Of a DNA stretch of 64,000 bases, positions 7,937-33,514 are shown in pieces. Every line of letters starts with the position of its first letter. Position 1 is the stretch's first letter. Under the pieces are notes generated by a model. That model did not search any database and was not told the origin of the DNA. It saw only the letters and a list, made by a program, of their open reading frames with translations. The DNA is from Tubulanus polymorphus. Its lineage: Eukaryota; Animalia; Nemertea. The position numbers and the translations under genes are program-made. The stretch lies in the NCBI RefSeq assembly GCF_964204645.1, contig NC_134032.1, positions 5,108,175 to 5,172,174 on the forward strand, given 5' to 3'.

Positions 7937-8538
7937 AGTAATAGGGGTAATGGGCTTTCATACCAAAGGTCGAACGGTCGAGCCCATTAAAAAACAAAAT
8001 ATTAAAAGTAATTAAAAAACTATAATATATTTTCATAACCGCGTGCATTTTATATCAAAACTAAATATTTATTCTAAGATATCAATAATATAAAAAGCAT
8101 ATTGTATTAAATCAATTGGTCGCTCCGCTTCGCCACCGCTCCGCTCCGCGACCAATTGATTTAATTACAATACACAAATTCAAATAATCAAATATATTCA
8201 AATGATAATAATTATTCTATTATTCAACTGAAATGCACGCGGTTATGAAAATATATTATAGTTTTTTAATTACTTTTAATATATGTTATTAATGAACTCG
8301 ATCATTAAACCTTTGATATGAAAGCCCATTACCCCTATTACTCTTAAAATATTCATATATATATGGATAACATTTAAATCATTGAACTTCTAAAATCAAT
8401 TTTAATAAAAAATATAGTATTAAAATGGAAGCAAATAAGTACTACTGCCCAACATGTAATATCGATATAGATAAATCTCAAAAAGCAAGACACAATAAAA
8501 CTATAACACATTTAGAGAATAAATTGAAACTAGAATAT
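7937..8538 (+). repeat. Left TIR of B (602 bp); outer 406 bp (7937-8342) is an imperfect palindrome
   Basis: Reverse complement of 25707-26308; I saw about two mismatches by eye. Confidence 0.95.
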
Positions 8539-8676
8539 TTACAGTTATATTCAGAACAGTTAACAAAGGGAAAGAAATTTATTGAATTATGGAATAATGA
8601 TCCAAATAATGAACAATACGTTGAGGAATTTATTATCAAGGAATCGAAAGAACTTATCAAAAGCAGCGAGGAATGA
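8425..8676 (+). CDS. Chimeric short ORF: first 38 aa of B pPolB (from the TIR) fused to a tail resembling the HNH protein C-terminus
   Basis: MEANKYY...KLKLEY is identical to the start of ORF 22794-25820; LQLYSEQLTKGKKFIELWN resembles LQLYLDQLDKAKTFVELWN of 8754-9422. Confidence 0.5.
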   Translation: MEANKYYCPTCNIDIDKSQKARHNKTITHLENKLKLEYLQLYSEQLTKGKKFIELWNNDPNNEQYVEEFIIKESKELIKSSEE

Positions 8677-8753
8677 AAAAGGATGACGTTAGTCGAAGAA
8701 ATGGAAGAGGATTCTAAAATGTTAATCAATTTTAATAAAAATATGTATAATAA

Positions 8754-9422
8754 ATGGAGCCGGAACAACCACAAACTATCAATATTACAAATAACACTGG
8801 CGTTATAAACATATACTACAAGAAGTGTTCTAAATGTGAATTAGATAAATTAGCTTTAACAGAATTTAGTAAGCGTAAGATTAGCAAAGATGGTTTTCAA
8901 TATTGCTGTAAAACTTGTTTTAAACTATATACCAAACAATACCGAGAAGATAATAGAGAAGCTTATAATGATTATATGACAGAATATATGAGAGAAAGAT
9001 ATCAAACAGATCTTAATTTTAGATTGAAACAATGCTTAAGATCTAGATTCACACAATTATTCAACAAAGAAACACATTCAGAAACATTATCTAATTTATT
9101 GGGTTGTTCAGATGAATTTCTCAAATCATGGATTATATTTCAATTCGATGATAAAATGAATATAGATAATTATGGGGATTATTACCATATTGATCACGTG
9201 TTACCAATATCTAAATTTAACATGAATGATGAATACAATAAAAAACTTATTTGGAATTGGAAGAATCTAAGACCTTTAGAAAAGAAGGAAAACATTATTA
9301 AATCCAATAAACTAGATTTACAGTTATATTTAGATCAACTGGATAAAGCAAAAACATTTGTTGAATTATGGAATAGTATTTCACAGAATCAACCGCATTC
9401 TGAGGTTTTGATCAGTGGTTAG
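8754..9422 (+). CDS. HNH-family endonuclease with N-terminal CxxC zinc-binding region
   Basis: CSKC...CKTC; YHIDHVLPISKF...WKNLRPL...ENIIKSN. Confidence 0.8.
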   Translation: MEPEQPQTINITNNTGVINIYYKKCSKCELDKLALTEFSKRKISKDGFQYCCKTCFKLYTKQYREDNREAYNDYMTEYMRERYQTDLNFRLKQCLRSRFTQLFNKETHSETLSNLLGCSDEFLKSWIIFQFDDKMNIDNYGDYYHIDHVLPISKFNMNDEYNKKLIWNWKNLRPLEKKENIIKSNKLDLQLYLDQLDKAKTFVELWNSISQNQPHSEVLISG

Positions 9423-9769
9423 AAAGCTGGCAATTCTATTTGAGCTGTGTATGTATATAATACATAGCTTTTGCTTACTACTAAAACATATGTTGCCAAA
9501 TATATCTTGTTTTCAATTCTAAAGAATTAATTAACTCATCATAAAGAACATCTGTGCAGAAGTAATTAGTTTGGTCGAACGTGCGCCACGTCGGCAGTTA
9601 GAAATCAACTTTCACATACATAGTACGTATTGGATATTCTCTCTCAAAACACAGTTTACAGTTCTAAATCTAAATGTAAGTACCGTTTTTTGTAGTTATT
9701 ATGAAGTAGGGAAACCTTTAAACATATTTAAGTATAGTAATTCATTTTCACGATATCTTTTAGATTAAA

Positions 9770-10498
9770 ATGGAACACAAAGATCAACCAGAAATTCTAA
9801 GCCAACCAACGGATGAGGAACGATTGCTACTGGATAGTGAAACTCAGGAATCAATAGAAATGGAGGATGAAACTCTCGTAATTGACGAACAAACTTCACA
9901 AACATTACAAGAACATTTGGACTATCATCAAGAAATGGTGAAAATTCTGAGTGATGTAATACATAATAAACAATTACCGCGCGAACTACAATTACCAAAA
10001 TTACCAGCAACGCGACTCAAATTGCTGTTGGGGCTCAAAGAATCGAAAACTAAGAAAATGAGTGGAGAAGAGTTGAACGAGTTTTTAAAATCTAAATTAA
10101 TCATTGACACAGGACATTTAAACTTTCCGGAAATACAAAGTGTAGAAGTTATTTCATTTGCTGAAATTACTGATATCTTAAAAAAAAGTTATAAAACCAT
10201 ATTAAATAGAAAAGCAAATCACCTATGGGACCACATCATTTTCGGGGGTTATCTAAATATAGGGTTTTCAATGTTTGATAAAGAAACTGAGGGGATTTCT
10301 TGGGGACTGTGGGTTAAAAAGAACATAGATATCAGTGCTGGTTTTGAAAGAAAACTGAGAAGAGTAGGTAGATTAATAAAATATGAAAAATTCAAAATAT
10401 TAGGATTAGCATTTAGTGAAGTAGTAAGACATTTACCAGAAATTGAAGAAATGATTGGAAACAATCCAGTAATTAAAGAATTCTGGACAAAATTATAA
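9770..10498 (+). CDS. Hypothetical protein (242 aa)
   Basis: Long intact ORF with acidic N-terminus; no motif recognised. Possible 5'-UTR intron GTAAGT(9676)...TTTTAG(9763). Confidence 0.6.
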   Translation: MEHKDQPEILSQPTDEERLLLDSETQESIEMEDETLVIDEQTSQTLQEHLDYHQEMVKILSDVIHNKQLPRELQLPKLPATRLKLLLGLKESKTKKMSGEELNEFLKSKLIIDTGHLNFPEIQSVEVISFAEITDILKKSYKTILNRKANHLWDHIIFGGYLNIGFSMFDKETEGISWGLWVKKNIDISAGFERKLRRVGRLIKYEKFKILGLAFSEVVRHLPEIEEMIGNNPVIKEFWTKL

Positions 10499-10566
10499 AT
10501 TATAATACTGAAGGTCTTAGATATCAAAAATGTAATCTCGATTGTATATATCTGTTTTAATATTGT

Positions 10567-10919
10567 ATTGTTTACTGTTAACTTAGTATTGCGCAATAAC
10601 CGGTCCTATTGGACCGCATTTCTATTGTTCTCCATTGTTCTACTATTGATCGTTGTTAATGGCGGCGGTTGTTCTGTATTGATTGTTTACTGTTAACTAA
10701 GTATTACGCAATAACCGGTCCGATTGAACCGCATTTCTATTGTTCTCCATTGTTCTATTATCGATCGTTGTTGACTGAAACAGCTGCTCAATATTGATTG
10801 GTTACAGTTCTATGTTTGAATGTTGTAGTTTACAGAATAAAAATATAACTGTGTATTGCGCAATAACCGGTCCTATTGGACCGCATTTCTATTGTTCTCC
10901 ATTGTTCTATTATCGATCG
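10567..10919. repeat. Three direct repeats (~65-90 bp) containing palindromes TATTGCGCAATA and CGGTCC-TATT-GGACCG
   Basis: Copies start near 10567, 10682 and 10853. Confidence 0.85.
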
Positions 10920-10996
10920 CTAAAATTTGTATAATAAATATATGTGTTTATGAAATAGTAATTCCACCAGTCGTTTCTTTGAATTTATTTTCAGTT

Positions 10997-11094
10997 TTAG
11001 GATTTATTATCGAGAATCCGAAATGACTTATCTGGACAGTTATAATTACTGCTCCTATAGATAGACAATAGTAGTGAGATAATCTAAATCCTAA
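10997..11094. ncRNA. Candidate structured non-coding element (shared with C at 33515-33593); strand and function unknown
   Basis: Conserved core AGAATCCGAAATGACTTATCTGGACA...TGCTCCT(C)ATAGATAGACAA(T/A)AGTAGTGAGATA with compensatory stems. Confidence 0.45.
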
Positions 11095-11306
11095 TTTAAA
11101 TAAAATATAATAAAAATAACATACCTTCAACTATCTATTATTTCTATTATATTTTTAATATTTTCTTTTCAAAAGAGAATACTTTATATCACAAATAAAA
11201 AATACTTAAAAAACAATAACTAATACTAGAATTCTTTAACTTCAACTAGCTAGTATCATTTGAAGAATACTTATAATATTTTTTTTGCTTTTTTCCTCTA
11301 ATATAA

Positions 11307-11909
11307 ATGTCAAAGAAATCGAGTAAGAATAATATTGATATTGAAAAGACATTAGATGATTTGGGTATAAGTGATAATAAAGATACAGTTGTAACTAATT
11401 CTATTCAAGTTAATAACAATATAGATTATGAATACTACTTATATTGTAAGCATCATCTAGAACTATTGATTGCTGGTGGAAAAACTAATGAGTTTTTAAC
11501 TAAGACTATTACTTTTCAAGAATTAGATGCTATGAAACCCGATAAAGTAATAAAATATTTTAAGATTTATGAAGAAGCTCGATTAGCTAGAATAAATGAT
11601 TCTATTTCTAATGGTATTGTCAAATGTTATTCTAAGTTATGTAACCAGTTAATACCAATTGATGATGAAAATAAATTATATAATGATTTGAAAAATGACT
11701 ATTTAGTTATGACTGAATTACAAAAATGGGTTGGATATGCTTCATTCCAATTAGGATCGGTTATGACGTTGATTTCTACTGGAGTTATAACATTTTCGAA
11801 CATCAAACCTATGGAATATAAATCAGGTAAGAACGAAACAGATGTACTACAACAAAACATCGAAACAGAAAATGAATCAGAACAAAAATTAACTAAAATA
11901 AATGAGTGA
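11307..11909 (+). CDS. Conserved hypothetical Polinton protein (homolog of 33926-34516)
   Basis: YEYYLYCKH...LKNDYLVMTEL shared with C; TAAATG start. Confidence 0.75.
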   Translation: MSKKSSKNNIDIEKTLDDLGISDNKDTVVTNSIQVNNNIDYEYYLYCKHHLELLIAGGKTNEFLTKTITFQELDAMKPDKVIKYFKIYEEARLARINDSISNGIVKCYSKLCNQLIPIDDENKLYNDLKNDYLVMTELQKWVGYASFQLGSVMTLISTGVITFSNIKPMEYKSGKNETDVLQQNIETENESEQKLTKINE

Positions 11910-12276
11910 TGGAGTTAAGAAAAAGGCTAGATCCGAGAAACAAATTAAATGGGCAAGAGAATTAGGTAAAAGATCATCAGAATTAAAAAAAGCTAAGAAA
12001 AAGAAATTAACTGATATAAATGAATCACCTGATGATGCCGTACGGCACCCACACGGTGGTATTGATTCAAATAATAATCCATCTAATTCTTCTAATAGTG
12101 GAAGAAATAATTACTTATATATTACAATTGGGTTAATCACAATTATTATATTATCCGGTGTAATATATAAATCAAAATTCAAATCCGATGATAAAGATGA
12201 TTCCAATGATAATAAACCTATCATACCCGAAAATAAGTCAAATGAAAATAAATCTAAAATATTATTAATGGATTAA
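11902..12276 (+). CDS. Small basic membrane protein (homolog of 33637-33978)
   Basis: KKxRSEKQIxW motif and one hydrophobic helix. Confidence 0.7.
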   Translation: MSDGVKKKARSEKQIKWARELGKRSSELKKAKKKKLTDINESPDDAVRHPHGGIDSNNNPSNSSNSGRNNYLYITIGLITIIILSGVIYKSKFKSDDKDDSNDNKPIIPENKSNENKSKILLMD

Positions 12277-12279
12277 AAT

Positions 12280-13368
12280 ATGATGAAAAAAGAACAATAT
12301 TTAAGAGATTTATATTATAACCCAGAAAGTGAAGTATCATTTTCTAACGTTTCAGAATTATGGAAAAAAATTAAATCCGATAATAGCAATATAAAATATA
12401 GTGAATTAAAATCATGGTTACAAAATCAACCCACATATCAAATTCATAAAAAGATGGATAAAAAATATTTAACAAGAAAAGTTATGGTTTCATATATTGA
12501 TCAACAATGGCAAGCTGATTTAATTGACATGAAAAACTTAGAAGAATACAACAAAGGATATTTTTGGATACTAAATGTTATAGATATATTCAGTAGATAC
12601 GCATGGAGTATCCCGATTAAAAATAAAACTGGTATAGAAGTTACAAGTTCTTTCAAATTAGTATTTAAAGAAGCTATCCCAGATAAAATACAATTTGATG
12701 AAGGTAAAGAATTTTATAACAAACATTTTAAAAAACTATTAACTGATAACGATGTAGAATATTTTTCAACACATTCAGATAAAAAAGCATCTGTTATAGA
12801 AAGATTTAATAAAACATTGAAAACTAGAATGTGGAAATATTTCACCGCTAATGAAACATATAAATATATCGATGTGTTAGATGATTTAGTGAAAGGTTAT
12901 AATAATTCTAAACATAGTTCTATAAATATGAAACCCATACAAGCTAGAAAAGAAGATAATTCGGAAATAGTTTGGAATAATTTATATGGAGCATTTGTTA
13001 CACACGATTTTGGAGAACCTAAATTTAAAATAGAACAATATGTTAGAATTTCTAAATATCGAAAAACATTTTATAAAGGTTATACCCCTAATTTTACAGA
13101 AGAAATATTCAAGATTAAAAAGATAATATTAACTAAACCATTTGTTTATAAATTGTTTGATTTAAAAGATGAAGAAATATAAGGTTATTTTTATGAACAA
13201 GAATTATCATTAGTACCAAATCCAGATGAAATAGAATACAAAATAGAAAAGGTATTGAAAACAAAAACTCTTAAAGGAAAAAAGTATTCTTTGGTGAAAT
13301 ATAAAGGATATGATGATAAATTCAATGAATGGATTTTATCTAGTAAAATTAAAAGAATAAATGAATAA
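12280..13368 (+). pseudogene. Retroviral-like (c-)integrase with C-terminal chromodomain, element B; one in-frame stop at 13180
   Basis: DDE motifs QADLID / QFDEGKEF / IERFNKTLK; after TAA the frame continues GYFYEQEL...YKIEKVL...LVKYKGYDDKFNEW. Confidence 0.92.
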
Positions 13369-13972
13369 AGATTTATTTATATTTGAACCACATAATATGT
13401 TAGTTACTGGAGTTACAAATTGTGGTAAAACACATTTCATATTAGACTTGTTAGAAACTATTTATAAAAATCATTTTGATAATATAATATTATTCTGTCC
13501 TACATATGAAATGAATGAAACATATAATAGAGATATAGTTAAGATAAAAAAGTTTATTATATTAGACCCTAAAACAGTAAAAGAAAATTTAGATAATTGT
13601 ATTAAAATTACATTAGATATTTATAAAGGATCTAATACATTATTTATTATTGATGATTGCGCAAATTTACATGATTCTAAAATTAGAGAAAGTGAGTTAT
13701 GTTATTTAGCTTTCTCTGGTAGACATTTTGGGATAACAACATGGGTTTTAAATCAGAAATATAATTCAATTGTGAAAGATTTTAGAGAGAATATAAGATT
13801 TCTAGTTTTATTTTATAACAAAGATAAAAAATCTATGCAACAATCATTGGAAGAAAATCAAATTATACCTACTGAATTACATGATGAGTATATGAATAAA
13901 TTAAAAAATAATAAAGGTTCAAAATTATTAATGAGATTACAATTTCCTTATGAATATAAATTTATAAAATAA
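13361..13972 (+). CDS. A32/FtsK-like packaging ATPase, element B
   Basis: GVTNCGKT Walker A, FIIDD Walker B, SGRHFGI motif. Confidence 0.92.
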   Translation: MNKDLFIFEPHNMLVTGVTNCGKTHFILDLLETIYKNHFDNIILFCPTYEMNETYNRDIVKIKKFIILDPKTVKENLDNCIKITLDIYKGSNTLFIIDDCANLHDSKIRESELCYLAFSGRHFGITTWVLNQKYNSIVKDFRENIRFLVLFYNKDKKSMQQSLEENQIIPTELHDEYMNKLKNNKGSKLLMRLQFPYEYKFIK

Positions 13973-13980
13973 CTATTTGT

Positions 13981-14086
13981 ATACCTATGTATTAGATACC
14001 CTATTATATACCCCAATACCTGATACCCTAATACCTGATACCCTAATACCTAATACCCTAATACCTGATACCCTATTAGATACCTT
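13981..14086. repeat. Short ATACCCTA/ATACCTG tandem repeats between convergent genes
   Basis: Visible iterated motif. Confidence 0.75.
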
Positions 14087-14142
14087 AAATAATTAAAACC
14101 CTTTTTTTATTTACTATTATTTTATACAATTTTCAACCTTTA

Positions 14143-15108
14143 TTATTCGAGTTTTAGATAATCAATTTCTGAATCACTTTCACTATCAGACGGCTCTAAC
14201 AACATATTTAAATGCTCTACCGAATCTACATCAACATCTTTATAATTTTTTTTCACCTTTTTCACCTTTTTCACCTTTTTCAAATTTTTTACTAAATCAT
14301 CAATAGTTGTTTCATTTTTTAACTTATTCTTCCAATCAAATTTATTATTATTTTCTACTTTAAGTTTTATAGAATCTTTATTACCAATATGTTTAACTGT
14401 AACTATATCATCATGTGGGTGTATGACATCATTTTCATTATCATCTTTATTAGTGTTTGATCCTAATATTTCATTTACAGTGTTTGATCCTAATATTTCA
14501 TTAGCATCGGTTAAATCTAATTCATCTTTATTAGGTGTTGCTAATAATAAATCTTCATATATTTTTTCACCATTTACTTTTTTATTTGAAACAAACTTTG
14601 TAACATATCTAAATGGGTGTTCTATAAATTCTCTTAAACCAACACGTTCTATAACATTAGTAATATGTGAATTTGTATTCATATGTTTATTCCAATTTGA
14701 TGGAGCGTTTGAAAATTCACCATTACAATAATCACAATAATTTCTATTTTCACTAACATTTAATATTATTGCATTATTATATGTAGAAGGTATTATGTTA
14801 TTAGATGTAGAGGGTATTACAGATGTAGAAGGTATTATGTTATTAGATGTAGAAGGTATTACATTATTAGATGTAGAAGGTATCACATTATTAGATGTAG
14901 AAGGTATTACATTATTATCAATTACATTACTTAAATTATCAACAACTTCACTTTTATTATTATCGATTTCCATTAGTTTAGTTTTATAATTTTTAAAAAT
15001 AGGATCAAATATCAAAGCTATATTACAAGGTATTACATAATATAAACCATCATTATTTTCATGTGTATCGATGTATGGAATATGTTTATATACTTTACCT
15101 CCTTCCAT
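14143..15108 (-). CDS. Hypothetical protein with (V/I)IPSTSNN repeats and a C2H2-like finger; absent from C
   Basis: CDYC...H...H motif; 24-bp coding repeats at ~14780-14915; TAAATG start. Confidence 0.7.
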   Translation of the reverse strand: MEGGKVYKHIPYIDTHENNDGLYYVIPCNIALIFDPIFKNYKTKLMEIDNNKSEVVDNLSNVIDNNVIPSTSNNVIPSTSNNVIPSTSNNIIPSTSVIPSTSNNIIPSTYNNAIILNVSENRNYCDYCNGEFSNAPSNWNKHMNTNSHITNVIERVGLREFIEHPFRYVTKFVSNKKVNGEKIYEDLLLATPNKDELDLTDANEILGSNTVNEILGSNTNKDDNENDVIHPHDDIVTVKHIGNKDSIKLKVENNNKFDWKNKLKNETTIDDLVKNLKKVKKVKKVKKNYKDVDVDSVEHLNMLLEPSDSESDSEIDYLKLE

Positions 15109-15140
15109 TTATTATATATATTTTTATTAAAGTTAAAATT

Positions 15141-16388
15141 TTAATACATAACACTATCTAATTGTGAATTTACAATATTTAATTGCGCGTCAGATAATAT
15201 ATAAATATGCATTTTAAAATTTTTAATTCCTTTTTTCTTTATCATGAATAATTGTATTCCATCTTTTGTATTTTGTAGTTTTTTCCCAGAACCATGTAAT
15301 AAGTTATCTTCAGTTGTTCTAAAATCTAACCATAATGCATATTTATTACCGGTATAATAGTCAATTTGATTAATGTTACAATTTTCAAATGATTTTACTT
15401 TTTCATTCATAAAATGTTTTTTAATTTCTACCCATTGATCTATCATTCTCATTCCTTGACAAAATATTTTATTCGCTATTCCTTCGATAGTTATTTCTAC
15501 TTTTGTTATTTCAGGATTATAATAATTGTCAACATTTATTGCGCCATTAGTATACGTTCCAATGGTAAAAAATATTAATATACCTTTAATAGATCTTCTA
15601 GGAAAGTTAATATTCTCATTTATTATTTCATCATTTGCATTAATAGTTACAGTTTTAAATTTATCAATATAATCATATAATAATGAAAATCCTTGATTGT
15701 ATTTAGTTTGAATTATACTTGAAATATTTTCATCAGTTACTGTATCATATTCTAAACATATATTCGATAATTTATAACTCATATCTTTATTAACGCTAGA
15801 TATTACAATTGCATTTACAGGAGCAAATGTTATCTCAAATATAATATCTTCTTGAATTGCGTATTTATATAAAGGTGCATTATTATTTATCAATTCAAAG
15901 TCTAATGGAATTTTATATTTGCTTCCATATATACTTTTTATCAATTTATCTACATCATTTGTTAATATTGCGCTATTAGCTTCTGATCTTAATTCATTTT
16001 GGTTTTCTGATTGGATGCCTTGAAATATCATATTATTTCTATTTTCTTTAGTTAACCATAAATCTTTATAATGCATAAATAAATTATAATCATCTAATGA
16101 GAAAACTGTTTCTGGATCAATCTTTATTGTTAACTTTTTAATCAAATATCTTCCAACATTATCAACAACATAATTATTATTATTACCGATTACTTTTATA
16201 TCAGCTGATAAATAAATACTGTTTGGAACATAAAAAGTATTTTGTGTTAATCTAGGAATTCTAACGTATAAAGTTTCATCGGGATTAATATTTGAAGGGT
16301 TATGAGTAATTATATGATGTGATCTTTCTGCTTTAATAGCATTAGATATTCTATGATTCTTAGAAGGATTGATATAACTCCCACTCAT
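15141..16388 (-). CDS. Major capsid protein (double jelly-roll, Polinton group-2 type), element B
   Basis: ITHNPSNI...YVRIP, LSNICLEYD, RRSIKGIL, LWLDFRT motifs; near-identical to 36567-37814. Confidence 0.8.
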   Translation of the reverse strand: MSGSYINPSKNHRISNAIKAERSHHIITHNPSNINPDETLYVRIPRLTQNTFYVPNSIYLSADIKVIGNNNNYVVDNVGRYLIKKLTIKIDPETVFSLDDYNLFMHYKDLWLTKENRNNMIFQGIQSENQNELRSEANSAILTNDVDKLIKSIYGSKYKIPLDFELINNNAPLYKYAIQEDIIFEITFAPVNAIVISSVNKDMSYKLSNICLEYDTVTDENISSIIQTKYNQGFSLLYDYIDKFKTVTINANDEIINENINFPRRSIKGILIFFTIGTYTNGAINVDNYYNPEITKVEITIEGIANKIFCQGMRMIDQWVEIKKHFMNEKVKSFENCNINQIDYYTGNKYALWLDFRTTEDNLLHGSGKKLQNTKDGIQLFMIKKKGIKNFKMHIYILSDAQLNIVNSQLDSVMY

Positions 16389-16442
16389 TTATTTAACAAA
16401 AAAATTAATTATTTATTTTTTGATATTTTTTGATATCATGGT

Positions 16443-18131
16443 TTACTTGATATTTTTTGATATCATATTTACTAAACCAAAAATAATAGCACTTACAACT
16501 GTAATTAGAAATAAAATAATATGTTCAGCAGCAAAGTTAATAATGTTTCCTGCAGATTTCAATATAAAACCAACAATTGAAGCAATAACTCCTGGTAAAG
16601 CTGCAGCAGATTTCTTTGATAGTTCCCACAAATATTTTGCTAATTTCTTTAAACCATCTTTAACTTTATCTTGTATAGAATTATTTCCTGGAGGTTTATC
16701 TGGTTTATTGGGAGTAGGAGTAGATTTCAAAGCATTTGATATTGCTAAACCAATTGTTGTAAATACCATAGTTACAGATGTTAGAATTGAAAGAATTGTT
16801 ATTCCTTCTAATTTAAATAATAACTTTATTCTGTCTTTTAATGATATTTCAGAATTTGGTTTAATCAACAAATCTTTAAAAATAACTTTTAATTTTTTAA
16901 TATGATTAAGATCATATGATTTTAATAATATATCTCTTTCTTCTTTTTGTAATTTTATGTTATATTCTAAATCATCTATTTCTTTTACTAAAGCTAACTT
17001 TCTGCTTTCAAAATCAGCTTCATAAACTACTTGATGATTTCTATTTAATTCTAATTGTTTTAATTCTTCATCTACATTAACTAATTCTTTTTCTAACATG
17101 GTTTTTTTAGAAAATCTCATCTTAATATTAGCAATTTCATCAGCTGATACTTGTATACCTTTAATTTCTCTACGTATTTGTTCAGGAAATGCTTCTAATT
17201 CTTCATCCGTTAAATTAAGAAATCCTTTTTCTAGTAAATATTGCAGTCGATTTATTCCAGTTTCAGAACCAGATGTATCTGATATACTATTCATCAGTTC
17301 TTCTGAATCTCTTAATCTATCAATTTGTTTTTCTAATTGTAATTTACTTGAATAATTATCAATTTGTTGAGTGTCTCTTCTCGATGTTTCGGGTGTTGAA
17401 GATCTCAATCTATCTAATCGATTTCTATTCTCTTCCATTTCTGGATCAAAATCAGTAGGATTTGGATTTTTAAATGGTGAATATTTGTTTATATTAATTT
17501 TAGGAATTGGTTCTTCTTCATTTATTCTATAGAGTGCATTCCATATAATTCTGAGAAATTCTCTACCACCTTTTGAATTTTCAATTGTAGATGTTGCTCG
17601 CATTTCAGGTTCAAAAATATTTTCTTGACCCATTTTAGATAATTGAATTGTTACAATATTCCTATTTAAATCAAGATTATAATACCATGCATCATTTTTA
17701 AATTCTAAATTATTTGTGAAATATGGGTCATCTTTAAAAATTTGTTCTACAACATCTTCAGTATCAATTTCATCTGTTACACCTGATGGTAATAATTCGT
17801 TAACAATTGTATCTGTTACTCTAGATTTCATTAAATATAAATCTTCTTTCAATTCAGGATCAGTTGTATTTACTAATCTATTCATTAAATCTTTTCTTTC
17901 TCTTCTAGTTGTAATTATACCCCTTTCAGGAGCTTCTAAATATTGTTTTATTTTTTCACGTAATTTGGGAACATCATCATAATCATCATCTTCACCTAAA
18001 TTAGTATTATATGCTGATTCATCATTATTATCAATATTAGCACCTGCATCATTATAATCATCATCAATATATCCTTCATTATTATTTCCCATGTCATCCA
18101 ATGGAATATCTTCTACACCTTCTACATCCAT
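16443..18131 (-). CDS. Coiled-coil protein with C-terminal hydrophobic/amphipathic helices (putative membrane-active virion protein)
   Basis: C-terminal LKDRIKLLFKLEGITI...ALPGVIASIVGFIL region essentially identical to 37839-39383. Confidence 0.7.
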   Translation of the reverse strand: MDVEGVEDIPLDDMGNNNEGYIDDDYNDAGANIDNNDESAYNTNLGEDDDYDDVPKLREKIKQYLEAPERGIITTRRERKDLMNRLVNTTDPELKEDLYLMKSRVTDTIVNELLPSGVTDEIDTEDVVEQIFKDDPYFTNNLEFKNDAWYYNLDLNRNIVTIQLSKMGQENIFEPEMRATSTIENSKGGREFLRIIWNALYRINEEEPIPKININKYSPFKNPNPTDFDPEMEENRNRLDRLRSSTPETSRRDTQQIDNYSSKLQLEKQIDRLRDSEELMNSISDTSGSETGINRLQYLLEKGFLNLTDEELEAFPEQIRREIKGIQVSADEIANIKMRFSKKTMLEKELVNVDEELKQLELNRNHQVVYEADFESRKLALVKEIDDLEYNIKLQKEERDILLKSYDLNHIKKLKVIFKDLLIKPNSEISLKDRIKLLFKLEGITILSILTSVTMVFTTIGLAISNALKSTPTPNKPDKPPGNNSIQDKVKDGLKKLAKYLWELSKKSAAALPGVIASIVGFILKSAGNIINFAAEHIILFLITVVSAIIFGLVNMISKNIK

Positions 18132-18147
18132 TTACATAATAAAAAAA

Positions 18148-19448
18148 TTAAAATTTAAAATATAATATTCCTCCGATTACAATTCCTATACAAGTTATAG
18201 CTAATTTAGTATTTTCATGTGATTTATTATCATCATCAGTTTTAATTATTTCATGTTGAATATTATCGGTTCTAATATCTTCTGATGTATTGTAATCTTT
18301 TATTTTAGAATCATTATTTAATTTAATATTCTTAGTTTTAGTTTCTGTTGATTGAATGTGTTTTTTATTTTTTTCACCTTCCATTAATTTTGGAGCAGTA
18401 ATAATCTTTTTATTTATATCATTCAATCCAAATGAATTATTTATTGTTGCAGTTTTAATTAGATTATTATAACCAATTATATTTCCCATCTTTAATACTA
18501 AATCATTAGAAATAATTAATAGATTAGGGCCTATACAATAATTAAGTCTTACATGAGATTTATCTAAATAATTTTGATATCTTATAATGTTTTCTGGAAT
18601 CGATCTATTTTTATCATTATGAATTGAATCTTCAATAAAACTTTAAACTGTTTCTGCGCATCGAATGAAGTGTTATCATTTCCAATTATTGGGGATCTTG
18701 TTTCAACTTGGGCGCCTAAAATACATATCAAATAAATTCTAATAGATTGATTTATTCTTTGTATACCTGATTTTGTAAAACCTTCACCATTTTCTAAAAT
18801 GAAATTAACCCAACCATTATTATTATCAATTTTATAATTATGATAAGCTGAAATTCTATGCATATAATCAATTCTTTTTATTTCATACTCTTCACCAACA
18901 CCTTGTAATTTACCATGCGCTCTAAAATCGGAATTAATATTTATATTAAATTCATTACATATTTTATAAAACTTGGATATATTAATATTATTATCCAATT
19001 CTTTAAAATATTTAGACCCAGGTAAAGGACATTCTAATTCATTTAATATTATTCTAATTTGAAAATATGTGTGAAATCTAAATATTGTGTGAATTAATTT
19101 TAAATCAGAATACTTCAAATTTTTATCTAAGTTATTTAAATGATCATTCCAACTAATTCCACATCCTGTTGTTGCACAATAAACAGCAAAATTTAATTGA
19201 TTCTGCCAATACTTCATATTAGATTTTACTTTATATATATGATATTCATCTCGAGTAAAAGTAACTTCATATGTATTAAATATATTTTCCATTTTAGAAA
19301 TAAAAAACTGTGATTCATTAACATAAATTTCTAAATTAGTTAATGAATTTAAAACTATATTTTTATATGTAATATTTTTCTTAAAATCTATTGCCGGAAT
19401 ATTATATTTAATTGATTTATTATATTGGAAAGCTTTTGGAAACCCCAT
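18148..19448 (-). pseudogene. Conserved Polinton protein (WQNQLNFAV motif), frameshifted copy of 39400-40722
   Basis: ORFs 18582-19448 and 18148-18489 join into the homolog of C's 440-aa ORF; frameshift near 18635. Confidence 0.85.
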
Positions 19449-19477
19449 TTATATAACTAAAAAAGTTAATAATTTAT

Positions 19478-19900
19478 TTATTCTTTTAATAATTTATCTT
19501 GTTCTTCAACTGTTATATGACCATTTAAACTTATTATATAATCTAGTGTGTTCTTTAATTTATTTATTTCTTTTATATTAGATTTTATTTTTTCTTTATT
19601 ACTTTTTATATTTAATTTTGAACTTATACCAGTTAAAACACTTGAACTGATTCCTAACACACCAATTGATATAGCTAAAGGTGTTAATGGACTGAATATT
19701 GCTAGAAATGTTATTACAGAACTAATTGTAACCGAACCACTAATAATAAGATAATATATAATTTTACTTTTTAAATATTTTTTCTTTTTTATCTTTAAGT
19801 CACTTTCAAATTCTAATAATTGTTTTTCTAAATATGTTTTTAATTTAGTTTTATTTATATCATGAGGAATAATATCAATACTATCAACTTTATCTTCCAT
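19478..19900 (-). CDS. Two-TM hypothetical protein (homolog of 40739-41173)
   Basis: Near-identical to the C copy; two hydrophobic segments. Confidence 0.7.
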   Translation of the reverse strand: MEDKVDSIDIIPHDINKTKLKTYLEKQLLEFESDLKIKKKKYLKSKIIYYLIISGSVTISSVITFLAIFSPLTPLAISIGVLGISSSVLTGISSKLNIKSNKEKIKSNIKEINKLKNTLDYIISLNGHITVEEQDKLLKE

Positions 19901-19920
19901 TTATTTAACAAAAAAAATTA

Positions 19921-20033
19921 CTAATTAGTAAACTTATAAGCAACAAAAAATATATAACTAAATAACCACCACCAGTAAATGCTAAAGCGTTAACAATTGC
20001 CGATCCTATAATAGTTATAATTGCAGAAGCCAT
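19921..20033 (-). pseudogene. Internally deleted copy of C gene 41194-41616
   Basis: MASAIITIIGSAIVNALAFTGGGYL joined directly to the 3' end (...TTTACTAATTAG); ~310 bp missing. Confidence 0.8.
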
Positions 20034-20057
20034 TTATTTAGCAAAAAAATTATGCAT

Positions 20058-20279
20058 TTATATGGGAGGAATATATTTTTGTTTTTCCAGATAATCAATA
20101 GTTAAATTAGATAAAGTAACTGCTAATGTTAACTTTAAAATATCATTTATATCAAATCTATCAACATTAACACTTCCCATTTTGAATACTTTTTTTAATA
20201 CCATTGAATAACCAACAGTTCCAACTGATAGTAATGCGCCATTATATAATCCAGTTATTATCCACTTATTATCACTCAT
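20058..20279 (-). CDS. Small hydrophobic conserved protein (homolog of 41641-41862)
   Basis: Near-identical in B and C; TAAATG start. Confidence 0.7.
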   Translation of the reverse strand: MSDNKWIITGLYNGALLSVGTVGYSMVLKKVFKMGSVNVDRFDINDILKLTLAVTLSNLTIDYLEKQKYIPPI

Positions 20280-20633
20280 TTATTTATCAAAAAAATTACT
20301 ATCATCAAAATATTTAGTTAACTTATTTATGATTAATTCAACATTTATTTCATTACTAGTTTTATGATTATCATATATTTTGGATAATATGTTTTTAATA
20401 TCATCGATGATAAAATCTTCATCTAATTCATAAAATCTTAAAGATTCTCTAATTAAATTAGTAATCTTTTCTACATTTAAAGTTTCTATTGTTGTTTCAT
20501 ACTCAAATGTTGTTTCATTAGAAAATACAACATTTTTGATATGTGTTATTACATCATTAATATTAAATTTCATTTCTTTCTCACGTTTAAAATCAAATCC
20601 AAAACATATACTCGGTCCAACAGTTATATTCAT
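20280..20633 (-). CDS. Hypothetical protein (homolog of 41863-42219)
   Basis: Conserved in B and C; TAAATG start. Confidence 0.7.
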   Translation of the reverse strand: MNITVGPSICFGFDFKREKEMKFNINDVITHIKNVVFSNETTFEYETTIETLNVEKITNLIRESLRFYELDEDFIIDDIKNILSKIYDNHKTSNEINVELIINKLTKYFDDSNFFDK

Positions 20634-20649
20634 TTATATATTAAAAAAA

Positions 20650-21405
20650 TTACTCTCTACATCTTATAACTAATTCATATATCACAGGAAAGTTATTTAA
20701 ATCAATTAAGTATCCATTATGATTTCTTATTTCTAATTTAAAATTATTAAATTTAGGAATGCAAGGTTTAAAATCACATTCTGTTAAATTATAATTTATT
20801 TGAGTTCCAAATTGTTTAACATTTTTTAGTGGTAAAATATTTAGTATACTAGAACTACAAATTGTTTCTTTAGTTGCTTCGAAAGTTTTTGTAGGCTCGA
20901 TTAAATTGCAATAAATATAAAAGTGCGTAAAAGGTATTATATTTGAGCTGCCTTCTGCGTTTCCAGTAACTGTAAGTGGTTTAATTCCTAACATTTTAGC
21001 CAGTGGTTTGTTTACCATAAATTTATGTTGTTCATTAGATATCTTTATTCTAATTTTATTAGTACTATCAATTTTATTAAATTTAATTTCAAATACAGAA
21101 GTGCCCCCGATTTTCAACCGAGCTCTTCTATTAATTTCCTGCGCTAATGATTCTAAATTATATAATCCTGGTTTTAAAAATATATGAAACCATTTATCTT
21201 TATTTCTCATATAAATCATAAACCCTCTATGTTCAAAAGTTTTATCTGATATATTATAAAAAGAATTACATAAACTTATATTAACTAATTTTAAATCTAC
21301 ACAATTCTTAAATTCTCTGTCTAATTGTACTAATAAATTATGTGATTTATAATTTGTAAGTTTTCTAGAATCAACAAATATTCTATATTCTTTTAATTCC
21401 ACCAT
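20650..21405 (-). CDS. Putative minor capsid (penton-like single jelly-roll) protein, element B
   Basis: IFVDSR...NSFYNI...YIYCNLI...LEIRNHNGYLIDLNNFPV pattern; heads the structural gene cluster. Confidence 0.65.
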   Translation of the reverse strand: MVELKEYRIFVDSRKLTNYKSHNLLVQLDREFKNCVDLKLVNISLCNSFYNISDKTFEHRGFMIYMRNKDKWFHIFLKPGLYNLESLAQEINRRARLKIGGTSVFEIKFNKIDSTNKIRIKISNEQHKFMVNKPLAKMLGIKPLTVTGNAEGSSNIIPFTHFYIYCNLIEPTKTFEATKETICSSSILNILPLKNVKQFGTQINYNLTECDFKPCIPKFNNFKLEIRNHNGYLIDLNNFPVIYELVIRCRE

Positions 21406-21422
21406 TTATTTTACATATTTTC

Positions 21423-21764
21423 TTATTCGAAATCTATTTCATGGTGCCCCTTTTCATTCTAACCTTTGTATACGAAATAGAAATCTCCAGAACATAATTC
21501 TTCTAGATCTTCACTTGATAATCTATGAAATCTATCTGGTAAATAAGTTCTGAATTTATATTTATTTCCTTTTAATCCTTCATATTCTAAATGAATTACT
21601 AATTTATCTCCATATTTGTTAGTAATTGTTTCAATGTTAGTAATTAAATATTTCTTGTGAATTGTTAACTCAGTTAGTACTTTAAATTTATAATCTACAG
21701 ATTTTACATTTGTAGTATCTTTAATTCTATCTAAGAATTCATTGTGTACTTGTTTACACTCCAT
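21423..21764 (-). pseudogene. Small protein (possibly OB-fold ssDNA-binding; homolog of 33160-33486), premature TAG at 21459
   Basis: After TAG the frame continues NEKGHHEIDFE*, matching NEDGHHDLEIVD* in C. Function is inferred only. Confidence 0.6.
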
Positions 21765-21792
21765 TTATTATACAAATTTTTATTGAAATTGA

Positions 21793-24700
21793 TTAACACG
21801 TTAGAATCCTTTTCATAATCTCATTTTCTTTTGTTTCTTCTCTTTTGAATTTTATATATTCATCTAAATTACAACCATAGGCGACTGTGTGGATTCCATC
21901 ATCTAAAATATATCTTTTATCATCAAATGGATTTAGACTTATCTTCTCTATCTCTTCAATATACATTTCATGATCTTCAGATCTTAAACATTTCATTTTA
22001 TGTTTTCTAACTTCTTCATTAAATATACAATTGATGTAATCTTTAAAATGAATATTCTTTTCTACTACATTTTTGGTTATTCCTTTTAACTCTTTAGCTT
22101 CATGTTCTTTAGTTTTATATGAATACATTTTAGATCTAATACCAATGAACTCTATCATTTCTTCACCACCTAATTCATCCTTAAACTTCCCAGGAACTTT
22201 TTTATTATCATTGCTAAACAATTCATGATTTTTTGGATAGTTACTGAAATCAAAATGGTGTTTTAATATTTTAAGTCTTTTGTTATGTTATCACTTTTTA
22301 TCTTTAATATGTAAGAATCTGTATCTAGATATAAGATTTCTATATGTTTTTCCCCAAAATGGGGTTGCAATACATTATAATAGAATTCATACATCAATAG
22401 CTTTGAAATTTCTAAAACTGCAGCTCCAACATAAATAGGTTTATTGAACTTCATAGAAGTTCTTTTTAATTTAACTGCAGCTAAATTTTCATCGAATATT
22501 CTATTACCTATGAATTTCGGATACGATTGCAAATGTCTAATTCTTTTACCATTACTAACTAACTCAATATCATTTCTATTTCTTATGTTTTCACATGTTT
22601 TTCCATAGAACGCATTATTCATCAGTTTAAAGTAATCCTTCTCAAAATCAGTTTTAGCTTCAGTTCTCTGTGTAGTATTAAAATCTATATATTTTTCTAA
22701 CCACTTAGATTGATTAAATGAAATATATCTATGTACTTTTTTTAATATCATTCTTTGATTCAAATAAAACTTCAACATTCTATAATGTACTACCTAATTA
22801 TATTTATCTTCTTGAGTTACCATTAACTTTTCTGTATGAATATGATTTTCAGGTTTAATTCTTTTTTGATAATTTGATAATTCTTCATGTTTAACAGTTT
22901 TATGTTCGGGACAATATGCTAGATTTCTAGATTTAAATTTAATATTTTCAGGGTATTCTAAATCTACAACAAAGAAGTAACCAATATCTGAATCATCTGC
23001 AATATCTAGGATTCTTTTCTTCCAATCAAATTTATCAATTTGTAAAACTTCAGTTATTTCAAACATCCCATAAGGTTGTGGTTCCATCATTGCCCAACCA
23101 TAAAGGTTATTTGCATCTATGTATAATAATTTATATCCAGGATTATCATTTACATTGAAATATCTATCACCCAATACACCTGAAACTCCTCCTCTTATAG
23201 ATTTTTCAAATAATAGTAATTGATCTATATTTGTTAACAAATCCATTTTTATATTTGTAAATTTTAATCCACAATCCCATGTTAATCCTGGTGATGAATA
23301 ACAATGACAAGGATCAATATTGAAATATTTTAAGTTTACATCTCTAAACCTTTCGAATATATCGGTTAATAATAATACATCTGATTTTAAATATAAATCT
23401 ACTAATTGTCCATGATTTTTAATTTCGAAATGATTCCAAATATTCAATGTTCTATTATATACTTCATCTTTAACATATTCATTTTTTAATTCATCATAGA
23501 ATTGTTCTTTTAATAATTCAGTTATTTTAAAATCATTATGATTTTTATAGAAAGAATATGGAATTGCACCTTTATATCTCATTAATTTAAAATCATCATA
23601 ATTTGGGTAATATTCTTTTAATATCTTTAATTCATCATCAACTAATGATTTTGATAAGTTATCTAATGAACTATTTAAAAATCTATATGAATCTATAAAT
23701 CTTAGACAACCAAATTGGAATGATATATAATTCTCAGATGTTTTAGCTAACATTCTAAATTTATAAGTTGGTATTTTATCTTTTGATTTATTTGAATTTA
23801 ATATTTCTATTTCATTATTAATTTCTTCTATTTTATGACATAACTGTTTGATAAATAAATGCGCGTCATACCCCGATAAATTGTGAAATATAATGGGGAC
23901 AAAATTTACTTTTTTGGCTTGCAAATTACAATTCTCATGTGCAGCGCCTCTAAATTTACCATTCAAATGATCATGGTCTCTTACTTTTTTATCTTTATAA
24001 TTAAATATCTTTTCACAATAATAACATTTATCTGCAAACCCAAATACTTCTTTATCTTCTTCTGTCATAATTATTTCTTTATTTGTATTCAATAATTTAC
24101 TAAATCTTATTTCATATTCAATTAATAAGTCACAAAAATGATTGATAACATTTTCATTTCTGTAATGATAATATTCACTTTCAATTAGTTCTGGATAATC
24201 AGATTTAATATATAACCCGAAAGCAGCAGCTGATTGATGAATCTTTTTAATAGTATTTGTTTTTGGTGGTTCTTCTGAATAATCATTTTCATTAGAATTT
24301 AATTTCTTTCTTTTATAATATATATCTTTTCTATCTTTATCTGTTAATTCTTTATTTAATGATTCAAAATCTCCATATATTACAAATGGTACTTTATTTT
24401 TGTAATCATATTTTTTGAATTCTAATATTTTATCTTTTTCATTTGGGAAAACTAATTTACAATAATCATGATTATCACATAGTTGTTTATGATTTAATAA
24501 TGTATTTTCATTACTAAATTTATGTAAACATTTTCTACATAGATATATTTTATGGTGATCATTTTCTGATTTGAAAAATAAATCTATTTGTTTAATCCAC
24601 ATATAATGATTCTCATAATATAGTATATCTATAACATCATTTGAATCATAATCTTTTGATAGATATAAAGGTTCTAATGTATAATGTTTAATATTATTTC

Positions 24701-25820
24701 CTTTTGTATTTGGTAATTTAATTAAATCAAATACATTTATCTTTAAATTATTATCTCTTTCTATTTTGGGGATGTTTTTAATTCTAACAGGATACTTATC
24801 TATCTTATAATTATTTTCAAATTGTTTATAATGAGTTAATCTAAAACTATGTGTAATATCTTCTGTTGGGTGTAAACAACTTATTATAGCCCATATAAAA
24901 CATTTATTATCAAAATTTTGTATATTTATTACACCATTAGTTTTAAATGGTAGTTTAATATAACTTGTTCCATTTATACTATCATCTTTATAATATGATA
25001 AATTATTTTCATCAATTGGTTTTGATTTAGTTAACTTATTATATTTTGTGTTATAAACATGTAAAGTTATAAATATTATCTCATCAAATATTAAACCAGA
25101 TCCTTCAAAATATTTCTCTTCTATTTTAGTTTTTATTTCATTATAACATTTATTTACTTTATCATCTATATGTTGTTTAGATATAATATGTTGTGAATGA
25201 GAATTTATATTATATATTGGTTTATCTTCAGATTTTATGAATTTAACTTTAGAAGATATACTAATTTTTGGATATTCTACGTTTGTAATTATTTTTATTA
25301 TTTCTTTCATATTTTCTAAATGTTTTTTATTTTCTTCTATTGTTTTTCCTTTATGAAATTTAAACTCGATAGCTGCTGGACCAATATCACTTTTAAATGC
25401 TTCGGTTATCTCTATATCTTTTTTATTATCTAATGAATTAATATAATTTCTTACATCTTCCATGTATGGTCTTTTATTGTTTAATTTATTTTTTATTCTT
25501 TTAATTGTTTTCTGTTTCTTATCGTTATCATTATCAAAATAATCTTCACCTAAAATATCATTATTCTTATTTCTAATATGACTTATAGATTTTAAATGTT
25601 CTTTATAATATCTTTTATCACTGAATGATTGATTACATGTATCACATTTATATGTTTCCTTTTCATTCTTTAATTCTTCTAATTTAGTTTCTAATATATC
25701 ATCCTTATATTCTAGTTTCAATTTATTCTCTAAATGTGTTATAGTTTTATTGTGTCTTGCTTTTTGAGATTTATCTATATCGATATTACATGTTGGGCAG
25801 TAGTACTTATTTGCTTCCAT
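21793..25820 (-). pseudogene. polB: Protein-primed DNA polymerase B of element B (one nonsense at 22794, one frameshift ~22270), intein-free
   Basis: IYGDFES, HNLSGYDAH, YIDANNLYG, KLMNNAFYGK, YLDTDS, KMY, KGI motifs; HNH/EndoVII insertion CYYC...DHDHLNGKFRGAAHENCN. Confidence 0.93.
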
Positions 25821-26308
25821 TTTAATACTATATTTTTTATTAAAATTGATTTTAGAAGTTCAATGATTTAAATGTTATTCATATATATATGAATATTTTA
25901 AGAGTAATAGGGGTAATGGGCTTTCATATCAAAGGTTTAATGATCGAGTTCACTAATAACATATATTAAAAGTAATTAAAAAACTATAATATATTTTCAT
26001 AACCGCGTGCATTTCAGTTGAATAATAGAATAATTATTATCATTTGAATATATTTGATTATTTGAATTTGTGTATTGTAATTAAATCAATTGGTCGCGGA
26101 GCGGAGCGGTGGCGAAGCGGAGCGACCAATTGATTTAATACAATATGCTTTTTATATTATTGATATCTTAGAATAAATATTTAGTTTTGATATAAAATGC
26201 ACGCGGTTATGAAAATATATTATAGTTTTTTAATTACTTTTAATATTTTGTTTTTTAATGGGCTCGACCGTTCGACCTTTGGTATGAAAGCCCATTACCC
26301 CTATTACT
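25707..26308 (-). repeat. Right TIR of B (hairpin unit 25903-26308)
   Basis: Inverted copy of 7937-8538. Confidence 0.95.
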
Positions 26309-32656: not shown

Positions 32657-32748
32657 AGTATTTAGAAAAGTGGGGTTTCAGATCAGAGGGCGTGAGGGCG
32701 AGACACCCCACTCATCACCACAAGTAATTTTTTTCCCTAATAAATGGG
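32657..32748 (+). repeat. Left TIR of C (degenerate similarity continues to ~32830)
   Basis: Reverse complement of 47201-47292. Confidence 0.9.
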
Positions 32749-32947
32749 AGACAGTGAGTTCCAAACAGAAAAAAGTGATGTCAATAAAAATCAATATTAT
32801 TGCCCATATTGTAAAAAATACATCGATAAACCTTACATGGAAAATGTTAGAAATTATATTGATTCACTAGAAATAAAAGATACAATTGAAATTTTAGAAA
32901 TATTACGTAGTAAAATTGTGACACACATAAACAGTGAGTGCGCGTAA
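32744..32947 (+). pseudogene. Deleted duplicate of the C pPolB 5' end
   Basis: VNKNQYYC.YCKKYID joined directly to KPYMENVRNYIDSLEIKDTIEILE; both segments occur in 44611-47205. Confidence 0.75.
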
Positions 32948-33124
32948 AAACAGCTGCGTGTGGATAGATCGATACAGTGAGTCTCTACTGAGAACGGTTA
33001 TTAATGTGTGTGCTATTACTGTAGTACAGTGATTGCGTGTCAACTGTACCCGGATAAATAGATGCTGTGAGGCTTGGGTGAGAACGGTTAATAGCGTGCT
33101 TGTTATATAGGGGGAAGTAATCCC

Positions 33125-33162
33125 CACTCATCACCACAAGTAATTTGTTTTCCTTATAAATG
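33125..33162 (+). promoter_or_regulatory. 35-nt motif CACTCATCACCACAAGTAATTT(T/G)TTT(T/C)CCT(A/T)ATAA fused to ATG (also at 32709, 43056 and 47240 minus)
   Basis: Four copies, each starting exactly 35 nt before a start codon. Confidence 0.7.
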
Positions 33163-33486
33163 GGAGATAGAAAAGCATTCTTAGCAACAATAAATAACAG
33201 AATAAAACCAGCAAAAAAACAATTTGAAATAAAAAAGTTAGTTGATGTTACAAAAGAAATTGAACATAAAATATTGAAATTAGAAAAGATAAAAACTAAA
33301 TACGTAGAGAAAGTATCAGCTAATTTAAGCTACTGTAATGTTAGTACATCGCGAGAATTTAAAGTGTTTTTACCCGATAAATGGGTTTCATTGAGTATGG
33401 AGGAATTGAAAGATTTAGTAGGATTTAAAATAATATATCATGGAAAAAATGAAGATGGCCATCATGATTTAGAAATTGTTGATTAA
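33160..33486 (+). CDS. Small protein homologous to 21423-21764 (possible ssDNA-binding)
   Basis: FL..I...KY..K...F..(F/Y)LPD...GHH pattern shared with the B copy. Confidence 0.7.
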   Translation: MGDRKAFLATINNRIKPAKKQFEIKKLVDVTKEIEHKILKLEKIKTKYVEKVSANLSYCNVSTSREFKVFLPDKWVSLSMEELKDLVGFKIIYHGKNEDGHHDLEIVD

Positions 33487-33514
33487 ATTTAAAAAAATAA
33501 ATTAATAAAAATAA

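Follow-up and report, generated by a model that had tools for sequence, protein, structure and literature searches.

What transcribes the two endogenous viruses that lie within a 64-kb stretch of the genome of the nemertean Tubulanus polymorphus? This stretch (NC_134032.1, positions 5,108,175 to 5,172,174; hereafter the window, in which all coordinates are counted) comprises a Maverick (element A), a complete Polinton-type endogenous virus nested in it (element B, 7937..26308), a related endogenous virus beyond it (element C, 32657..47292) and a 118-bp satellite. Genes of B and C open in the hexamer TAAATG. The original prediction took this for a two-class, poxvirus-like promoter system and for a sign of virophage-like dependence on a large DNA virus. 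We lean towards the view that the TAAATG signals are post-replicative promoters, which a pox-type helper virus would transcribe with its own RNA polymerase and which would mark a virophage-like Polinton lineage.

Elements B and C are integrated Polinton-type viruses, as their terminal inverted repeats, 6-bp target site duplications, protein-primed polymerase (pPolB), rve integrase, A32 ATPase and double-jelly-roll capsid protein demonstrate. The inverted arms of B (7937-8538 and 25707-26308) are 602 nt long with 100% identity, and the duplication TCTGCC flanks the element on both sides. Element C has 177-nt inverted arms with 92% identity, flanked on both sides by ATAGTA. The structural blocks of the two share ~88-93% nucleotide identity; both elements have a GC content of 24% and tightly packed genes, and the rve integrase, A32 ATPase and pPolB are common to them. 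The integrase and polymerase genes are broken in both B and C, and these copies are probably not self-sufficient.

TAAATG was found at 14 of 18 gene starts in B (14 of 19 if position 18489, an internal ATG of a frameshifted gene and no true start, is counted) and at 15 of 16 in C, in agreement with the claim that almost every gene of the two elements starts in this hexamer. The exceptions in B are TAAAATG at 8425, 9770 and 25820 and a TAAA a few bases upstream at 12280; the one in C, at 43033, reads TAAAT-A-ATG. None of the 11 gene starts of element A carries the hexamer. Non-start ATGs lie in TAAATG at a rate of ~6% (46/718 in B and 30/543 in C; Fisher p 1e-12 and 5e-17). Under a more stringent null, in which each short open reading frame (ORF) that is not a gene contributes its first ATG downstream of a stop, the rate is 8-9% (43/469 and 28/350), and the gene starts remain far in excess of it (binomial p 7e-12 for B and 5e-16 for C).

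For the analyses that follow, a hand-checked set of 92 starts was assembled, 32 from the window and 60 from 13 metagenomic loci, with the near-duplicate loci L002, L007 and L011 and internal ATGs left out. TAAATG is present at 83 of these starts, and TAAA lies at most 7 nt from the ATG in 91. The stop codon of an upstream frame supplies the hexamer in just 5 of the 83 TAAATG starts. Where the ATG has been displaced (43033, L003, L006 and L008), TAAAT is kept. Base -3 is T in 83 of the 92 starts, whereas it is a purine in 9 of the 11 element A genes. A T at this position gives scanning ribosomes a poor context in which to start translation. It would be tolerable if the RNA started on the A run within TAAAT and carried a slipped poly(A) leader, as is described for poxvirus RNA in the cited texts (PMC6831550, PMC7163114). 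Taken together, the data support a signal that behaves like a promoter rather than like a product of base composition or stop-start coupling.

The sequence upstream of TAAAT has a regular geometry. A run of at least five T is present at 47 of the 92 starts, and its spacer to TAAA is 6 nt in 27 of the 47, 5-7 nt in 37 and 5-8 nt in 43. Against shuffled sequences the T-run class (43/92) far exceeds chance (mean 4.0, maximum 11 in 500 shuffles). A second core, AATAAAA at 9-13 nt before TAAA, occurs at 11 starts, with a spacer of 10-11 nt in eight of them (shuffles: mean 1.2, maximum 5). One start has both cores and 35 have neither. Among the 76 non-start TAAATG sites of B and C, by comparison, a T-run was found at three and an A-core at none. 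All 21 T-run promoters of the window have T as the tenth base before TAAAT, and all 5 A-core promoters have A there; the pooled profile shows A at -18 together with T at -12.

Vaccinia late promoters are reported to have a T-rich core and a 5-7 bp spacer before TAAAT (PMC5294985), and in intermediate promoters 12 bp of spacer are said to separate an AT-rich core from TAAA (PMC12917281); a T ten bases before TAAAT is given for the late but not the intermediate class (PMC11980589). In salmon gill poxvirus, conserved genes are described as marked by TAAATG (PMC4542343). By sequence, the geometry of the T-run form thus matches the vaccinia late type and that of the A-rich form the intermediate type, the latter a loose test because the published core has no strict consensus. 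Other patterns were also scanned in the 92 starts. The Mimivirus late motif was not clearly enriched (6/92; shuffles 7.2), and neither were the Mimivirus early motif (2/92; 1.2), the TCTA motif of Cafeteria roenbergensis virus (CroV) (9/92; 5.5, sd 1.9) or the baculovirus and pox early patterns; the Mimivirus and CroV late motifs are those of PMC11464507 and PMC8547959. TATA-like boxes (39/92; 33.4, sd 4.3) and the upstream motif of yeast elements (20/92; 16.9) were likewise not clearly enriched.

In element B, T-run promoters precede the major capsid gene (16386..16404, minus strand; seven T, a 6-nt spacer and TAAATG) and the genes at 18131 (18129..18147), 19448 (19446..19464), 19900 (19898..19917), 20033 (20031..20049), 20279 (20277..20295) and 20633 (20631..20649), all on the minus strand. 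The promoter at 20279 lies within the last codons of the upstream gene, whose stop is the TAA of TAAATG. On the plus strand, the gene at 11307 has a T-run promoter (11289..11309) with a 9-nt spacer and no gene ending directly upstream. The T-runs predicted at 16388, 19900, 20033, 20279 and 20633 are therefore present, and those at 18131, 19448 and 11307 add to them. Neither a T-run nor the A-rich core precedes the gene of the packaging ATPase (13361) or the gene starting at 21405, which probably encodes a minor capsid protein.

A-rich promoters in B begin with that of pPolB (25818..25841, minus strand: AATAAAA, a 10-nt spacer and TAAAATG), which lies in the right inverted repeat; its copy in the left repeat (8404..8427, plus strand) opens an 83-aa ORF. 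Others precede the HNH-like gene 8754-9422 (8734..8756, plus strand) and the genes at 21764 (21762..21784) and 15108 (15106..15128), both on the minus strand; the type at 15108 is kept in loci L001 and L004. The 21764 promoter duplicates that of 8754, and the two are 84% alike over 70 nt. The predicted A-rich motif was confirmed as an AATAAAA core at 25820/8425, 8754, 21764 and 15108, although these sites are partly duplicates: because 8425 is the inverted-repeat copy of the pPolB start and the 8754/21764 promoters are duplicated, B has about three independent A-type promoters.

In element C a T-run promoter (37812..37830) precedes the major capsid gene (36567-37814, minus strand). In a back-to-back pair (43031..43093) both strands carry a T-run and CACTCATCACCACAAG lies in the middle, and the C pPolB promoter (47203..47240, minus strand) consists of a CACTCATCACCACAAG box, a T-run and TAAATG. 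Further copies of this arrangement lie at ~32709-32746, 33125-33162 and 43056-43093. The 16-nt box itself precedes four C promoters (32709-32724, 33125-33140, 43056-43071 and 47225-47240), all on non-structural genes or terminal copies; neither B nor the relatives' loci that were retrieved contain it. The possibility that the T-run is only a terminator of the upstream gene was rejected as sole cause because T-runs are present at the 43033/43091 pair and in the C terminal repeats, where there is no upstream gene.

The distribution of the signal among relatives was determined from a capsid alignment search, which returned 106 metagenome loci; the best 80 of 106 were analysed. In loci L001-L015 and L052, 55 of 65 ORFs of at least 100 aa start at TAAATG, compared with 5 of 283 in the other 64 loci. 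For homology-anchored starts the counts are 70/81 in this group and 5/397 in the sisters, although the start may have been misassigned in many of their broken copies. Among those sisters that are closest to the clade or richest in AT, TAAATG stands at 0 of 31 starts and A at -3 in 23. In a midpoint-rooted capsid tree of 71 sequences (28 loci with matches <300 aa, including L012 and L052, were left out), all carriers group in a single clade (support 0.997). We conclude that TAAATG marks one capsid clade of Polinton-type viruses whose sister lineages do not have the motif. Within the clade it is kept at 36-44% GC (8/9 starts), and fourfold sites match those of B at 16/62, 17/59 and 17/53 (26-32%), near saturation; this, with its absence in the sisters, argues that it is a selected, clade-specific trait. 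Locus L011 is an exception (0/2), with a TAAATG four bases off the capsid ATG.

The sister lineages seem to have start signals of their own: TATATA(TA) directly before the ATG in L040/L049, which resembles the late initiator of African swine fever virus (ASFV), and AAAAATG in L018/L060. Clade capsids P0046 and P0126-P0133 come from contigs <2 kb in several assemblies labelled Bartonella sp. and are probably contamination. Many megabase contigs carry a 427-aa sister capsid family (P0058-P0120), which suggests that it has expanded to high copy number in the genome of some eukaryote.

A pox-like helper polymerase is a likely reader of these promoters because TAAATG stands at nearly every gene and in the closest relatives but not in the sisters. 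In the scheme that we favour, the integrated copy would be silent until a helper infects the cell; the helper RNA polymerase would then initiate inside TAAAT and slip on the A run, so that a poly(A) leader would replace the T at -3, and the element would replicate with its own pPolB in the cytoplasmic factory of the helper. In this scheme late promoters would be those of the T-run form, with a 6-nt spacer, and intermediate promoters those of the A-rich form, with a spacer of 10-11 nt. Precedents exist in the cited literature: virophages share late promoters with their helpers, and such sharing defines the activation of mavirus-like elements (PMC8547959), while Polinton-like viruses are present in entomopoxvirus occlusion bodies (PMC11296320). 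Egoviruses are described as the nearest poxvirus relatives, with basal branches in marine sediments, and as having given a gene to protist Polintons (10.1101/2024.03.23.586382), which makes pox-branch helpers outside insects and vertebrates plausible. The predicted helper dependence thus gains from the promoter-like, clade-specific signal and its vaccinia-type spacing, while the pox identity of the helper does not follow from the intein carried by C.

Several observations weigh against a pox-type helper. The cited text gives vertebrates and arthropods as the only known hosts of poxviruses (PMC6831550), and the relatives described here are metagenome contigs. A search for a helper by promoter patterns in viral contigs returned 41 loci with scattered single matches, the densest carrier having them at 5 of 11 starts at most. 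The TAAAT initiator is not unique to poxviruses, since 24 of 173 starts in intein-bearing, non-pox large-virus contigs are TAAATG; L099, a non-pox large-virus contig picked by motif, has 5 of 11. The intein has relatives in polymerases of giant viruses and T4-like phages, and its sequence comparison resolved no donor. Some B proteins have no annotation, and a factor of the element's own could be hidden among them, steering host polymerase II. The promoter classes also switch between orthologues, and 35 of the 92 promoters fit neither class. Depletion of the poxvirus early terminator TTTTTNT in coding strands of the clade loci (16 vs 42.0) was considered as a pox sign and rejected as unspecific because runs of at least seven A are depleted as much (35 vs 85.6); the seventh-base effect is modest (17 vs 31.2, versus 56 vs 68.8). 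For avoidance of AATAAA in coding strands, B and C are not separable from A (71/68.0, 66/60.3 and 13/12.4).

The intein is a 355-aa LAGLIDADG intein (44845..45909, minus strand) at motif C (YFD|TDS) of the internally deleted pPolB of C. Among 37 viral loci with relatives, the best ones have it in family B polymerases of giant viruses, again at motif C, and the intein context is YGD in 120 of the best 150 representative proteins. The closest intein among these 150 (P0169, 75%) is in another polymerase of the B/C lineage. Some of the intein-bearing polymerases are phage-like, of a kind which we take to be T4-like. An intein tree resolved no donor. The intein had been counted as evidence for a large-virus link; it is indeed shared with giant-virus polymerases at motif C, but it is not pox-specific and B has none. 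It indicates contact with large DNA viruses in general and not specifically with poxviruses.

Whether the two forms are separate classes is a distinct question. The A-form is more frequent in non-structural (7/25) than in structural genes (4/67; p 0.008), and the T-form is not class-specific (10/25 and 37/67; p 0.24); in these statistics kin are not independent and the label 'structural' rests partly on gene order. Orthologues with a switched form include gene 21764, HNH, the probable minor capsid gene and pPolB, the last of which has the A-form in B and the T-form in C and L008. The predicted two-class temporal cascade is therefore less secure than first proposed: the A-form is enriched in non-structural genes, but the T-form lacks specificity and orthologues change form. 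A true intermediate/late cascade is the weakest step of the scheme, and the chances for and against it are about equal. Ordered expression need not require two classes, as Zamilon genes are expressed in sequence although most have a late motif, according to the cited account (PMC11464507). Only slightly short of an even chance is the alternative that there is a single promoter type with an A-then-T core before TAAAT, of which T-run and AATAAAA are the extremes, and no temporal cascade. The switching orthologues, the starts that fit neither form, the unspecific T-form, the pooled profile with both A and T, and the partial duplication of the A-forms in B all favour it. The A-form enrichment, the retention of the A-form on the 15108 family in three loci and the tenth-base rule, which splits the forms as in vaccinia, speak for two classes. 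A single type is compatible with a pox-type helper or with a large-virus helper of another branch.

Such a helper, a large DNA virus that does not belong to the poxvirus branch (e.g., mimivirus-like) but has a similar TAAAT initiator, is unlikely, though several observations speak for it. The best full-length relatives of the intein occupy the same site in polymerases of giant viruses, the group to which known virophage helpers belong, and the TAAATG rate in intein contigs exceeds the 1-9% typical of the short-ORF nulls for the elements. That rate, 14%, is far below the 85-90% of the clade; both spacers fit vaccinia, the Mimivirus and CroV motifs are not clearly enriched, and the ASFV initiator is given as ATA/TATA instead (PMC7163114, PMC5294985).

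We consider it quite improbable that B and C are autonomous nuclear elements in which host RNA polymerase II, perhaps with an element factor, starts at TAAAT and yields near-leaderless mRNAs. Integration by an rve integrase implies that the elements reach the nucleus, TA fits the generic pyrimidine-purine start, the zinc-finger genes (15108 and 43091) could be transcription factors, and C adds its own upstream box, CACTCATCACCACAAG. Against this, element A of the same genome, which encodes TBP and PC4, has ordinary purine -3 starts; TATA-like boxes are not enriched, and a two-base leader would be hard to translate without slippage. We know of nothing in polymerase II transcription that would account for a T-run at a constant distance of 6 nt. 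Finally, it is hardly credible that TAAATG merely results from AT richness, tight packing or translation-start preference: the low GC content and packing of B and C would suit this, but the start counts contradict AT content and stop-start coupling as the cause, and the motif is kept at 44% GC, is absent in AT-rich sisters and places a disfavoured base at -3.

A wider form of the pox-type helper scheme, possible but on balance doubtful, is that the clade as a whole, not recognised before, has been rewired for pox post-replicative transcription, with intermediate promoters distinct from late ones, and that its members are endogenous virophages of pox-branch viruses in hosts and habitats from which no poxvirus is yet known; the promoter type of a Polinton sublineage would then predict its helper. 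The pox-type helper scheme itself, if right, would supply a missing molecular link between Polintons and poxviruses, predict undiscovered pox-branch viruses and suggest that a heritable parasite with antiviral effect exists in hosts other than protists. The transcription of Polintons and their possible dependence on helpers are a long-open question; a sharp, lineage-specific promoter is a direct handle on it, and with this motif Polintons can be sorted according to the helper they are likely to have. TAAATG promoters in Polintons were not described in the literature searched (subscription papers and preprint supplements were outside its scope), and the term 'promoter' has no match in two recent surveys or in a structural review.

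The B major capsid protein (15141..16388, minus strand; 415 aa) was identified as a double jelly roll from a structural model (predicted local distance difference test, pLDDT, 83.6) by Foldseek; the best matches are large-virus major capsid proteins (E 5.6e-19), and the nearest structural matches are 9-15% identical. The A32-type packaging ATPase of B (13361..13972, plus strand; Pfam Pox_A32 E 1.2e-11) has its TAAATG within the coding end of the integrase (12280..13362, plus strand), which contains an internal stop and was found with Pfam rve and by tblastn with the L001 integrase. The B pPolB (21793..25820, minus strand), located by tblastn with the L019 polymerase, is broken by a stop and a frameshift and has no intein. 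Gene 20650..21405 (minus strand; TAAATG without a T-run) is presumably the minor capsid gene from the family pattern, with Pfam DUF5901 (E 6e-4) its only match. The HNH-like gene 8754-9422 (plus strand) matches only Pfam HNH_4 (E 0.055); gene 19900 is SLATT-like and gene 15108 zinc-finger-like, both by weak matches. No relatives of the capsid protein, ATPase or pPolB were found in the viral contig collection.

Among the 53 window ORFs, Pfam recognised no RNA polymerase or capping domain; a polymerase search with Pfam/NCBIfam gave no match, and no free ORF is of suitable size, several ORFs being without annotation. The cysteine maturation protease that most Group 1 Maverick-Polintons have (Peptidase_C5/adenain type) was not found in any B or C ORF and is present in element A (31526). 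The zinc-finger protein of C (43091..44392, plus strand) has a C-terminal half that is a VLTF3-like candidate. It has no Pfam match to VLTF3 at E 1 and no homologues by sequence search. For a low-confidence model (pLDDT 58), the top Foldseek row is cowpox VLTF3 (E 0.033), one of six late-transcription-factor rows among 50; PDB sequence and fold searches gave no clear match (best Z 5.6). In L009, a deoxynucleoside kinase (10340-10981; Pfam dNK E 1.7e-31) lies under a T-run TAAATG promoter.

Element A had been described as spliced, unlike intronless B and C; splicing of A was not established, acceptor-like sites being present in 3 of 11 genes of A and 2 of 32 of B and C. It encodes the nuclear transcription factors PC4 and TBP at 364-954 and 27198-27728. 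Element B is inserted inside an ORF of A, and C lies just beyond A. Nested inverted arms (57 and 65 nt) in the terminal repeat of B (7937-8342 / 25903-26308) could form a long terminal hairpin. Short intergenic tandem repeat arrays occur in B and C (10561-10919, 13990-14085 and 34550-34800), and the 118-bp satellite array, of >110 copies at ~48800-64000, is preceded by a long (AT)n tract. A non-coding stretch of 65-100 nt with 77-85% identity is shared by window positions 11008-11108 and 33519-33612 and L009 2451-2517, in three gene contexts and always downstream of a plus-strand stop; alternatively, it may be a remnant of a gene end. For its 70-nt form there is no match in Rfam and the folding is not better than that of shuffled sequences; its pattern has 0 viral and 4 bacterial matches.

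Compared with known systems, B and C share with Mavericks/Polintons (Polintoviricetes) the pPolB, rve, A32 ATPase, double-jelly-roll capsid, inverted ends and 6-bp duplication, and differ in having no detected adenain-type protease, in sisters that have the same gene set without the motif, and in the intein of C. The yeast elements pGKL1/2 are not known to have a capsid or to integrate. In the cited description they are likewise pPolB elements with a TAAAAT-type initiator and pox-related transcription, but they have their own RNA polymerase and an upstream motif that is not enriched in B and C (PMC6831550). The entomopoxvirus-associated AHEV_PLV1/2, CBEV_PLV1 and Ca_PLV1 (PMC11296320) are also Polinton-like and poxvirus-linked, whereas they are ~12 kb long with a cysteine protease and no rve integrase; the paper has no promoter analysis (0 matches for promoter, motif or TAAAT). 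They are probably another lineage, since two short B capsid motifs were not found in its supplement, a weak test. Mavirus and the endogenous mavirus-like elements (EMALEs) with CroV, and Zamilon with megavirus (PMC8547959, PMC11464507), are small integrating capsid-coding viruses with pPolB and rve whose own genes carry the late promoter of the large virus; unlike B and C, these are protist virophages with a known helper and TCTA or Mimivirus-type motifs, which are unenriched here. Relative to vaccinia, B is an 18-kb element without a recognisable RNA polymerase, with the promoter on nearly all genes including those for replication; no early class was found in B or C, and promoter function is here predicted from sequence. 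With the vaccinia late and intermediate promoters, as described in the sources cited above, it shares TAAAT(G) over the start codon, a T-rich core ~6 nt or an A-rich core 10-12 nt upstream, and a tenth-base T in the late form only.

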